In this document: positions 41,101 through 44,100 of the stretch, one piece after another
Numbering within the stretch: the first letter of the stretch is position 1
Layout: every line of letters starts with the position of its first letter
NCBI GenBank assembly: GCA_029261035.1
Contig: JAJDCD010000004.1
Span: 4,765-68,764 of the forward strand
Reading direction: 5' to 3'
DNA length: 64,000 nucleotides
From: Candidatus Omnitrophota bacterium
Lineage (GTDB): Bacteria; Omnitrophota; Omnitrophia; Omnitrophales; JACROU01
The notes under the pieces: generated by a model
Databases searched by the model: none
What the model was told of the DNA's origin: nothing
The model's input: the letters and a program-made list of their open reading frames with translations, nothing else
Translations under genes and position numbers: made by a program

Positions 41101-44100
41101 CTGTTTCTTTAACAAATTAATGAGCGGAATATAAGTCACATTAGGGCTTGCTATAATCGTTTCCTTCCCTACGACTTGATCCTTAATAATTGCTTCAGCA
41201 TCTCCATTATAAGTATGCAAATAAGGCTGACCTGGTAACTTAACCGCACTAACAACCGAAGGACCATAATCCGTATCATCTTCAATAAGTCCACGACTTA
41301 AAAGTGCTGCATACTTCTCAACATCAATCACACGATGGGTATAACCCATTTCGTTGTCATACCATTCTTTAATCTGAATCACAACATAGTCTTTGTCTGG
41401 AGAAACAGTAACAGATGTTCCTGATGGATCAAAGATTGAAGATTCGGATCTATTATGAAGCTGACTCGTATTCTGTATTTCGTCATATCCAAAAATACCT
41501 CTTAAGGCATCCGAATTGGCCCACGAGTAAGCTTGAGCATTTACTTGTTCAACCGTAGGGACATCATTTATATTATTAATACCTATTCTCAAACTGGTCC
41601 AAACTGCAGAACCATCTGGATTAGCTAATCTTCGAGAAGCACCTTCAAACTTCCCTTTAAATAAAGGGTCCGCTTTAACATAAGCCTTGCTCGCCCCTGT
41701 TGTAGAAATAGCCCCTAACATTGTAGGGTCATTAACAAGAGATGGACCTTTTTTAGGAACTCTTGACGCTGAACCTAAGCTCGATTGCGACAATGTATAG
41801 CCATGTTCTGTAATGAAAACAGCATCAAACATTGAAGGAAAACCCTCATCCAACAAATATCCATTCAAGCGGCTCAACCCAGGACCAACACCATTGGTTG
41901 TACAAGAAGCACAAGAAATAGTTTCCACCACCAGAGGAACTTCTTCAGGTATAGCACCATATGCACTTGTTGGAATAATTCGTTGATATTCTTCTTTTGC
42001 CATGTGAGCTCTCTCAATTTCTTCTCGAATATCTTCAACATGATTAATTCCAAACACAATGTTCTTAATACCATCTTTCTTAGCTGGATATGTTTTTATT
42101 ATTCTTTGAACACCTGCAATAGCTAATGAATGATGTAACGGTCTATTAAAACCATCATCTTCTCCAACAGCATCAAATAATACTTCGATGTTAATAGCCT
42201 CCTCATTAGGCCCTTTAAGACCTCTCAACATGGTTACCATATCTCTAATAAATTTAGCAGCAGCATCTTCTTTATTACCCGACCTAGCTAGACGAATATT
42301 AAATATAGGTATTTTATAAACAACTTCGTCTGTTTGCTTATCTTTAAGAACCAAAAAGTCTTTTCCTGGCCCTTCTTTTACAGCTTCAGCAACCCAAGGA
42401 TATGCCTTGTGAACAATGTCCGCTTGCATCTGTTGTACCAACGCAATAACATCAGAAACTCCATTTAGAAAAGCCGGGTAATAGTTAGGGTCTTTATAAA
42501 GCAATCTCAAGATACCTTTTCCTATACGGCCTCTACCCCCCGTTATCCCATAATAAATACGTTCCCCTTCAGGAAGTTGTGCTGGCATATATTTAGTATC
42601 ACTAGAATCTACAACTGGAATCGAATTAGAAGGCACATTATCCTGAGAAGTTGTTTCGATAGGATAATTTGATCGATCATTTACAAGCATATTCATAAAT
42701 GTTTGAACACGACCCAGCTCGTTACTCCAAACAGGTATCAATACCTGCCCCTCTCCTCCAACAATCATATCCTCTATCCCAATAATAGCTAATTCTCTAT
42801 GATCCGATAACATTAAGGACTCTAAAGGCTCTCCTTCTTTTTGTAAACGCACGAAGTTTTCACTACCCGTTCTTTTTAAACCTGCTTGCAATGCAGCAAT
42901 AATTTTTTTCTTTCTCTCTTCAGGGTTTAATTTTAATAATTCAGAATCTGCTTTAAGCTGAATGGTAAAGTCAACAATCGAAGCTCCTTTAAATGGAGCT
43001 GCAAAGTTCATAGAATTCAAGGAAGCTTGGACCAACTCTCCATCATTTGTTTTGTTATATCCAGCCCATTCAGGAAATTCTAGACTTAACGCTGTTCCCA
43101 TACCCGCTCTTAAAGTTTGCAGTTCTCTGTCCATTAATTCTGCTGGTGTCTTCACACTCAAACCTGTGTACGCTGAAATATCTTCATTAAGATCAGATCG
43201 TTGTAATAGTGCTAATACATTTCCTGCAACCTGAGTTCCTAAAGAAGGTACAAAATGCACTTCATCTTCACGAAGTAAAACTTCAGAATTTTGTCCATAT
43301 ATAATAGGTCTTTTTGTTTTAAGGTCTGATAATGGATTATAAGAAATAACCGAACTTAATGATGATTTAGAACGCAAATCTTCTAATCGTTTCAATAAAT
43401 TTTCTTCTGATTCACCCGAGTTACGAGAGTCAGACATGTCAATAAGTGTGTCATAACCATCCACATTATCATTATGAGGTAATTCTGGATTTAATTTAAT
43501 TCTCTTATCATTAATAGACAAATAAAACACACCCTCTTCTTCAATTAATAATAGTTTCCCTGGCAACCTTCCAAATACCGTGTTACTCACAACCAAGTTA
43601 AAAAGTGATTGAGGGTTAGCAACACCAAAAATTTCATTCAAAGAAATGTTTGGATCTCCAATAAGAGCCCATAACATCGAAATTAAGTCTCTGTTGTATA
43701 AGGTGTATGGATTCACATTCGTATTTTTTGGAAAATTTGATGCAACAGATCTAAACTCTTCTACTTGAGGTTCAGATAATTGAGTCACTAACTGAATCTG
43801 ACTTAAATCTTGATAATAGTCAGGGGCACCTACGTTAATAGCCAATTGAATAGGTTGATCAAGCACTTGTTCTCTAGCCACAGCGACACCCAAACTATTT
43901 GCTGAAGCAACACCACTATAAAGAACATTCGCTTCTCCCGTAACTGGGGAAGTTTCTAAAATAATAGAAACCAATCTAGACGCCCCATTACCAGAAACTC
44001 TAAACACAGACTCCGAAACTCTTGAAGAATGGCTTCGAGCTGCTTCCAATTCAATACGATCAAAAGCTGCAAGATTAGCATTTAATTTCAAACGGCTATT

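Follow-up and report, generated by a model that had tools for sequence, protein, structure and literature searches.

A tandem pseudo-GAPDH/GAPDH cassette predicted in a 2566-residue Omnitrophota protein with a signal-peptide-like N-terminus

The window analysed here is a 64,000-nucleotide stretch of a Candidatus Omnitrophota bacterium contig (GenBank JAJDCD010000004.1, positions 4,765–68,764, forward strand; assembly GCA_029261035.1), within which a minus-strand gene encodes a giant modular protein of 2566 amino acids (aa) with a glyceraldehyde-3-phosphate dehydrogenase (GAPDH)-like domain in its middle. On sequence comparison this domain keeps its catalytic core and, together with a dead copy that precedes it, makes up a tandem pseudo-GAPDH/GAPDH cassette (aa ~640–1520), of which it is the live half. 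The original prediction had been of an intact GAPDH domain placed in the middle of a secreted protein; the mid-protein position, in a giant with a signal-peptide-like N-terminus, stands, but the domain is one of a pair rather than a lone insert. The protein and the features of its cassette are as follows.

38107–45807, minus strand: giant modular protein, 2566 aa, an uninterrupted open reading frame (ORF)
42622–43860, minus strand: GAPDH-derived pseudo-domain, aa ~650–1062, catalytic Cys and His lost (hhalign)
41272–42585, minus strand: GAPDH-like domain, catalytic core intact, aa ~1075–1512 (TIGR01534, Gp_dh_C, PDB 1hdg)
42499–42555, minus strand: Rossmann loop YYGITGGRGRIGKGILRLL, aa 1085–1103
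41881–41919, minus strand: active-site block ISCASCTTNGVGP, aa 1297–1309
41902–41904, minus strand: catalytic Cys1302, equivalent to C149 (phmmer, MAFFT, hmmalign)
41785–41814, minus strand: ITEHGYTLSQ, aa 1332–1341
41803–41805, minus strand: catalytic His1335, equivalent to H176 (phmmer, MAFFT, hmmalign)
41428–41442, minus strand: SSIFD
41320–41364, minus strand: C-terminal signature WYDNEMGYTHRVIDV

Every GAPDH motif from which the domain was first recognised can be found in the minus-strand ORF, no more than a few bases from the position originally given for it, and the proposed GAPDH-like fold is borne out, at similarities well beyond chance, by searches with three kinds of reference. NCBIfam TIGR01534 (type I GAPDH) matches the domain with E=4.8e-27 and 95 bits, over model positions 148–330 only and short of the equivalog cut-off of 367 bits. 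The two Pfam domains behaved differently: Gp_dh_C scores 25.6 bits, above its gathering cut-off of 24.4, while Gp_dh_N reaches 17.9 bits vs a cut-off of 31.7 (50.3 and 55 bits, respectively, in P0159, an ortholog described below). Comparison with PDB sequences by phmmer returned 137 GAPDH chains, headed by T. maritima 1hdg (E=1.3e-20), and in the 1hdg alignment SCASCTTN pairs with the C149 block and TEHGYT with the H176 block; the catalytic Cys and His (Cys1302 and His1335) are preserved, as had been claimed. Identity to free GAPDHs is 26–30%. By these comparisons the domain truly belongs to the type-I GAPDH superfamily, of which it is a fast-evolving member, and it is not an ordinary GapA or Epd, because Asp32 is replaced by Gly, Arg195 and Arg197 are lost and the family score is 95 vs 367 bits.

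The domain was aligned with 14 free GAPDHs and to the canonical GAPDH hidden Markov model (HMM). Residues kept comprise G-x-G-R-I-G, Asn31, S148-C149-T150-T151-N152, H176, T179, T208-G209, R231, Y311-D-N313-E314 and TGA(A/S)K, with both the substrate-phosphate (Ps) site (T179, R231) and the N313/E314 signature conserved. Those replaced are Asp32 (Gly), Phe8 (Arg), Arg195 (Lys) and Arg197 (Pro). At the inorganic-phosphate (Pi) site S148, T150, T208 and G209 are present, R195 and R197 are gone and the S-loop is remodelled. Judged from the residues retained, the core chemistry and the Ps site therefore look intact and the cofactor-specificity residue and Pi site do not, so that the term ‘intact’ fits the catalytic core and Ps site but not position 32, the two arginines or the score against TIGR01534. 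Extra residues number ~80–100, and the single NAD-domain insertion of ~90 aa first described resolves into at least two, of ~38 aa ahead of the ‘ESTG’ strand and of ~31 aa ahead of SCASCTTN, with a further 6 aa preceding TTGA.

Conservation across other giant proteins follows the same division. In all 28 giant-embedded GAPDH domains that scored well, which are ~25–35% identical to free GAPDHs, C149, H176, T179, T/S208, G209, R231 and Y311-D-N313-E314 are invariant, and positions 32, 195 and 197 are variable. Within the clade that carries the cassette, Gly32 and the G-x-G-R-I-G-K loop are invariant and the S-loop/Pi-site positions 195 and 197 differ. The catalytic residues of the GAPDH domain thus appear to be under obvious purifying selection despite extreme divergence. 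When the NAD(P)-specificity residues were inspected, as proposed at the outset, position 32 proved to be Gly instead of Asp. A B. stearothermophilus chain with Gly at this position (PDB 1dbv) fits the domain better than does the wild type (3.1e-18 vs 1.1e-16); 1dbv is established as an engineered D32G GAPDH that is able to use NADP (Clermont 1993; Didierjean 1997). Gly32 in the cassette clade hints at NADP or dual cofactor use, and in the 2566-aa protein the replacement of Asp32 would make NADP(H), or relaxed specificity, the expectation.

Upstream of the live copy, the pseudo-domain is collinear with GAPDH from the Rossmann helix to ‘VWSNELG’, a degenerate form of the WYDNE.GY signature. In hhalign comparisons the segment from the 2566-aa protein matched a GAPDH alignment with a probability of 80% (E=1.5e-5), and a profile built from seven pseudo-domain sequences matched the canonical GAPDH profile with 99.1% (E=1.2e-18, 297 columns). 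C149 is replaced by Leu or Pro, His176 is missing and GxGxxG has decayed to AINxGA. The cassette recurs in at least six other giant proteins, and P0161, P0162, P0163, P0165 and P0166 have all of it. Many giants have a weak copy followed by a strong copy when scanned with the canonical GAPDH HMM, P0164 has two good copies, and P0160 has four, in the order GAPDHx2-PGK-GAPDHx2 (locus L083, 8018–14287). The four copies in P0160 (242–301 bits each, Cys and His kept) form a GAPDH-a and GAPDH-b pair on either side of the PGK domain, and a similar a/b pair in P0164 is followed by HEAT repeats. These pairs suggest obligate hetero-pairs of GAPDH paralogs.

The relatives emerged from an exhaustive phmmer search with the GAPDH domain over 1.84 billion representatives, in which giant proteins outrank every free-standing GAPDH. 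P0159 (2057 aa) is the closest (47% identity to the domain, E=3e-87), followed by P0160–P0166, P0168 and P0169 (1423–3921 aa for these further giants), and ~10 more giants are scattered among ordinary GAPDHs lower in the list; the protein is not a one-off oddity, and the search for homologous giants proposed at the outset has been productive. A word-indexed homolog search with the same domain returned free GAPDHs only (26–30% identity), missing all of the giant relatives, and a scan of the genome contig collection found no relative of it. An odd match (L105) in a metagenome scan with the cassette, which was dominated by ordinary GAPDH genes, is a normal 331-aa gap gene. A rough neighbour-joining tree, indicative only, puts the domain and that of P0159 together, beside those of P0161–P0166/P0169 and apart from free GAPDHs. 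In seven giants GAPDH occurs together with PGK domains. In two GAPDH-bearing giants (P0292, aa 357–756; P0240, aa 1215–1576) PGK is apparently circularly permuted, residues aligned with ~277–385 of E. coli PGK preceding those aligned with ~8–271.

P0159, from assembly GCA_016206875.1 and cut by a contig end, is collinear with aa 502–2543 of the 2566-aa protein (32% identity), and by this alignment is an ortholog from an independent assembly. Its existence bears on whether the giant ORF could be an artefact, either a chimera made in assembly or a real gapA joined to its neighbours by read-through. The contig is metagenome-assembled, and the exact protein (identical to P0001, on a 222-kb contig in NCBI) forms a single cluster with one member; even so, no stop codon interrupts the 7.7-kb ORF, its base composition matches that of its flanks and is uniform across the window, the ortholog is collinear over ~2030 aa and at least six further giants have the same cassette. 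Nor is the domain a captured housekeeping gene, because it is only ~27–30% identical to any free GAPDH. An assembly artefact is effectively excluded by the independent ortholog, and the probability that we attach to any such origin is negligible.

The N-terminal part of the protein, by which it can be assigned to a wider family, consists of two features.

45721–45807, minus strand: signal-peptide-like N-terminus, aa 1–29, MSLGKTSVEFKSIVWALIAVFTLSNSVYA followed by NP (inspection and hydropathy)
44278–45720, minus strand: N-terminal family-defining module (N-module), aa ~30–510, predicted TIKI/TraB/Ere/ChaN fold with a large helical insert

The N-terminus begins with a basic n-region, continues with ~12 residues of h-region and closes with a VxA c-region (VYA before N), and is the sole hydrophobic segment of the protein by hydropathy. 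A similar N-terminus was found in 20 of the 22 family members checked. The original description of the protein as secreted is thus backed by an N-terminus that looks like a signal peptide to the eye and in hydropathy. A whole-protein search identified 37 proteins (1426–4384 aa) that are alike only in the first ~500 residues (21–26% identity), from sources named as Omnitrophota/Omnitrophica, Elusimicrobia, Endomicrobia and ‘bacterium F11’, the best named relative being from a ‘Candidatus Omnitrophota bacterium’; named members of the family thus come from Omnitrophota and Elusimicrobiota. Beyond the N-module these proteins carry GGDEF and receiver domains, PPDK, protein kinases, MidA methyltransferase, glycogen synthase, glycogen phosphorylase, NUDIX and adenosine deaminase.

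Invariant motifs of the N-module (D-A-H, E, R-D and G-G-x-H) include D76-A-H78, E106, R443 and H471, each present in all 16 aligned members. When curated families (PF01963, PF04187 and PF05139) were considered for a sequence match, Pfam Cofac_haem_bdg, a family of the ChaN/TIKI superfamily, gave sub-threshold matches only, in five of 16 members (best E=1.8e-4; 0.37 in the 2566-aa protein). A sequence-profile search of PDB with the N-module found nothing, and the relationship is seen by fold comparison only, which gave BcR135 (9.2), HopBA1 (9.1), ChaN (8.9), EreC (8.5), RRSP (7.8) and PMT (7.1). EreC was also the top match, a weak one, in Foldseek. These matches are the same set as the TIKI superfamily, active members of which use a 2His/2Glu motif (PMC6254334). 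As modelled, the N-module has the parallel beta-sheet core fold of TraB, Ere, ChaN, RRSP and PMT, and in the alignment it carries the acid-x-His, Glu and second His set of the TIKI superfamily.

A second giant gene lies next to that for the 2566-aa protein.

23642–37777, minus strand: adjacent paralogous giant, 4711 aa, next gene downstream, with PPDK cargo

The 4711-aa neighbour has a signal-peptide-like N-terminus as in the 2566-aa protein, 30% identity to it in the N-module and 48% in a C-terminal module (C-module; aa 2325–2566 of the 2566-aa protein, aa 4472–4711 of the neighbour), and an HMM of the C-module built from the 2566-aa protein and P0159 matches the neighbour with E=4.7e-53. A complete PPDK is present at aa ~2912–3834 (PPDK_N, 6e-30; the PEP-utilizers mobile domain, 7.8e-13; PEP-utilizers_C, phosphoenolpyruvate (PEP)-binding, 1.9e-19) and keeps the catalytic His (GGQNSHT) and Cys (YCGND) motifs. 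The ~2900 aa preceding PPDK are without annotation. N-module, PPDK_N and the GAPDH cassette are found on one chain in P0162 (3801 aa; assembly GCA_016196545.1), which, as read from its domain order, is a fusion-type link between the GAPDH-cassette and PPDK cargos. Because the cargo (GAPDH, PPDK, PGK) is pathway-coherent, it can be argued that these enzymes work together.

Where they would do so depends on the N-terminus. If the N-terminal segment were an uncleaved anchor, or were ignored, the protein would stay on the cytoplasmic side as a membrane-tethered metabolon of lower glycolysis/gluconeogenesis (GAPDH with PPDK, and PGK in relatives) that channels substrates within the producer. Such a metabolon would account for enzymes of one pathway being fused or adjacent (GAPDH with PPDK, GAPDH with PGK) and would give them the cytoplasmic cofactors that they need, and West-Roberts et al. 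(10.1101/2023.11.21.568195) themselves warn that glycolytic domains may have been predicted as extracellular through an error of topology. The hydrophobic stretch, however, is only ~12 residues long, preceded by a basic n-region and followed by an AxA-type site, which is the geometry of a signal peptide and not that of a transmembrane helix; the same N-terminal design is seen in 20 of 22 relatives, and hydropathy gives no second transmembrane segment that would return the body of the protein inside. Ordinary GAPDH, PGK and enolase are moreover reported in 176 of 176 Omnitrophota genomes, so that housekeeping does not call for a second set that is highly diverged. Retention on the cytoplasmic side seems to us quite improbable.

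The explanation that we favour is instead that the live and dead GAPDH halves form a tandem cassette that would belong to a large set of interchangeable enzyme ‘cargo’ modules carried by a family of Sec-exported giants, each built from a signal peptide, a hydrolase-like module of TIKI/TraB/Ere fold, variable enzymes and sometimes a shared C-module. The dead copy may replace the partner subunit of a GAPDH dimer, giving an intramolecular pseudo-dimer. The live copy would act on glyceraldehyde-3-phosphate, or on a phospho-aldehyde like it, through Cys-His thiohemiacetal/thioester chemistry, and since Arg195 is lost from its altered Pi site, the phosphorolysis step would be modified. It would work together with the PPDK of the neighbouring paralog, at a site outside the cytoplasm of the producer (in its periplasm, at its surface, or else on or inside a partner or prey cell), and the N-module is a putative hydrolase that possibly processes the polyprotein. 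We hold the identity and architecture in this account to be highly probable; the mechanistic part (catalytic activity, cofactor, pseudo-dimer and site of action) is offered tentatively, and the account as a whole, from identity and architecture to mechanism, strikes us as reasonably probable.

Several results weigh against this explanation. The signal-peptide call was made by eye and from hydropathy; the NAD domain of the 2566-aa protein is weakly recognised (17.9 bits for Gp_dh_N); and a single-sequence AF2 model of the GAPDH domain was uninformative (pLDDT 33). The failure to conserve Arg195 and Arg197, with the remodelled S-loop, could abolish the phosphorylating step. Neither the periplasm nor the cell exterior is expected to hold NAD(P), glyceraldehyde-3-phosphate, ATP or PEP, and export is hard to reconcile with catalysis because GAPDH and PPDK use cytoplasmic substrates and cofactors.

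GAPDHs that moonlight at the cell surface are established, and several of the same observations would suit a cassette that is a non-catalytic binding or scaffold module, acting as a surface adhesin or ligand sensor like the moonlighting surface GAPDHs of pathogens. With signal peptides in the protein and its family, the GAPDH domain probably ends up where cofactors are absent, one of its two copies is already a dead enzyme, and the Pi-site arginines and S-loop have diverged; the published view of Omnitrophota giants favours attachment and cell-wall targeting. The conservation described above is difficult to fit to this role: every catalytic and substrate-phosphate residue is retained across all 28 giant-embedded domains, divergent as these are, and the cassette clade shows no variation in the dinucleotide loop, which argues for selection on chemistry or precise ligand binding and not on a mere surface, and the PPDK cargo of the neighbour likewise retains its catalytic His and Cys. 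A non-catalytic role of this kind is unlikely in our view, though it deserves more weight than a cytoplasmic metabolon.

Sec export with catalysis could be extended to a role of the family as a hitherto unrecognised class of secreted multi-enzyme effectors. Once the polyprotein had been exported, and perhaps passed onto or into a host or prey cell, the N-module would process it, and the freed, catalytically active GAPDH cassette and PPDK (with PGK in relatives) would run lower glycolysis/gluconeogenesis in the metabolite pool of the partner, draining or rewiring carbon, ATP and NAD(P)H to the benefit of an ultra-small host-dependent bacterium. This extension is speculative and we give it a low probability, about that of the cytoplasmic metabolon.

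The remainder of the 2566-aa protein, following the cassette, includes two conserved features.

39103–40170, minus strand: conserved region, aa ~1880–2235, 43% identity to P0159
38110–38835, minus strand: C-module, aa 2325–2566, common to the 4711-aa neighbour

The first is the best-conserved stretch of the C-terminal half and by eye resembles class II fructose-bisphosphatase (FBPase; GlpX), with NPLD vs DPIEG and STSGIAE vs GIGGAPEG. Alignment with E. coli GlpX/YggF is collinear and not significant (hhalign probability 1–2%, E 0.02–0.04), and Pfam and PDB profile searches and a metagenome scan with this region were empty. It is a possible remnant of class-II FBPase, which is not established and can serve as a lead only. 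No significant match was obtained for aa 1515–2325 in Pfam, NCBIfam, PDB or by hhalign, and aa 1515–2566 contain no significant PGK, FbaA or third GAPDH copy. A Pfam scan of the 2566-aa protein detected no HEAT repeats or dockerins.

Three GC-rich hairpins (ATTCCCGTGTAGACGGGAAT, GGATCCCCGCTTTCGCGGGGATG and CTGTCATTAGGATGTGACAG; minus strand) lie in the intergenic region between the two giant genes (37778–38106), and two of the three were listed by a terminator-like scan. Directly upstream of the gene for the 2566-aa protein is a 159-aa ORF (46239–46718, minus strand) with no Pfam match. A third giant ORF (53199–63977, minus strand; 3592 aa) has a GTG start near the window edge and may be truncated; it contains RHS repeats, matches TcdB_toxin_midN weakly and resembles a Tc-toxin/RHS-type cocoon protein, and neither of the other giants has a module in common with it. 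A tandem pair of divergent GroEL/Cpn60 paralogs, both of 556 aa, comes directly downstream of the giant genes (19478–23337, minus strand), separated by a 125-aa ORF (21216–21593). The rest of the window is ordinary chromosome, encoding DnaE, GuaA, GuaB, RpoD, DnaG, LptF/G and RpsB, as well as Alr, TsaB, TsaE, ThiL and CoaX. The best matches to this DnaE in a genome scan reach only 51–54% and come from MAGs that bear the labels Planctomycetia, Omnitrophota and Nitrospirota, which points to no clear phylum.

Exported giants packed with cytoplasm-type enzymes are an open puzzle of Omnitrophota biology, and the locus described here is experimentally tractable because the protein is small (2.6 thousand aa). 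The dead/live tandem may be a natural single-chain GAPDH dimer, and the conserved N-module of predicted TIKI fold, which defines the family, could be a processing or targeting device. The site and substrates of action would tell adhesins from extracellular metabolic machines and from injected metabolic effectors.

Type I GAPDH (GapA; Gp_dh_N/Gp_dh_C; TIGR01534) and Epd have the same two-domain order as the domain described here, with SCTTN, H176 and the WYDNE.GY signature. GapA is a free tetramer subunit of ~335 aa, whereas this domain is fused behind a dead paralogous copy in a protein of 2566 aa that is apparently exported. On these comparisons it is distinct from GapA proper in equivalog score, in Asp32, in Arg195 and in not being a free tetrameric subunit. 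A laboratory parallel is PDB 1dbv/2dbv, the NADP-accepting D32G/L187A/P188S form of B. stearothermophilus GAPDH, with Gly at position 32 right after the conserved Asn, as in the 2566-aa protein; the former is a mutant of a normal tetrameric enzyme made in the laboratory, while cofactor use by the latter is predicted only.

Giant proteins of Omnitrophota have been described as ‘Archaeovorins’ by West-Roberts et al. 2023 (10.1101/2023.11.21.568195), and a class of ‘multi-enzyme metabolic cluster’ appears in a 2026 preprint (bioRxiv 10.64898/2026.06.07.730766); these studies concern proteins of at least 10 and up to 147 thousand aa. TPI, GPI, FBPase, PGM, FBA and PPDK domains are reported in exported or membrane-associated Omnitrophota giants (10.1101/2023.11.21.568195; 10.64898/2026.06.07.730766), West-Roberts et al. 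raise the same problem of cytoplasmic substrates for these six, and topology predictions in the 2026 preprint put metabolic content towards the periplasm or exterior. The 2566-aa protein is like these giants in its signal-peptide-like N-terminus and in having several cytoplasm-type enzyme domains (TIKI-like module, GAPDH cassette), and differs in size, at 2566 aa against the published 10 thousand aa or more. As exported multi-enzyme Omnitrophota giants are already published, ‘a glycolytic enzyme in a secreted giant’ is not new. The published texts considered here do not mention GAPDH cargo, a dead/live cassette, a TIKI-fold N-module or the shared C-module, and appear not to describe strict catalytic conservation, Gly32 or a coherent GAPDH/PPDK/PGK cargo set. 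Measured against those texts, what appears to be new is the GAPDH cargo, the tandem cassette and an N-module family of proteins of 1.4–4.4 thousand aa across Omnitrophota and Elusimicrobiota names.

TIKI-superfamily folds also occur in toxins, namely the RRSP effector of MARTX toxins and other toxin domains (PMT C1/C2, HopBA1). The 2566-aa protein is without RTX repeats, a CPD autoprocessing protease or MARTX sequence similarity, and its cargo is made up of central-metabolism enzymes, none of them a recognised toxin; that it is delivered into another cell is pure conjecture.

Fusions of glycolytic enzymes are known in PGK-TPI of Thermotoga and TPI-GAPDH of stramenopiles, which are bifunctional, cytoplasmic or organellar and of ordinary size. 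These have no signal peptide, dead duplicate or TIKI-like module, unlike the 2566-aa protein, but they likewise place glycolytic activities that are consecutive or related on one polypeptide, as do the relatives of the 2566-aa protein in which GAPDH is fused with PGK and PPDK.

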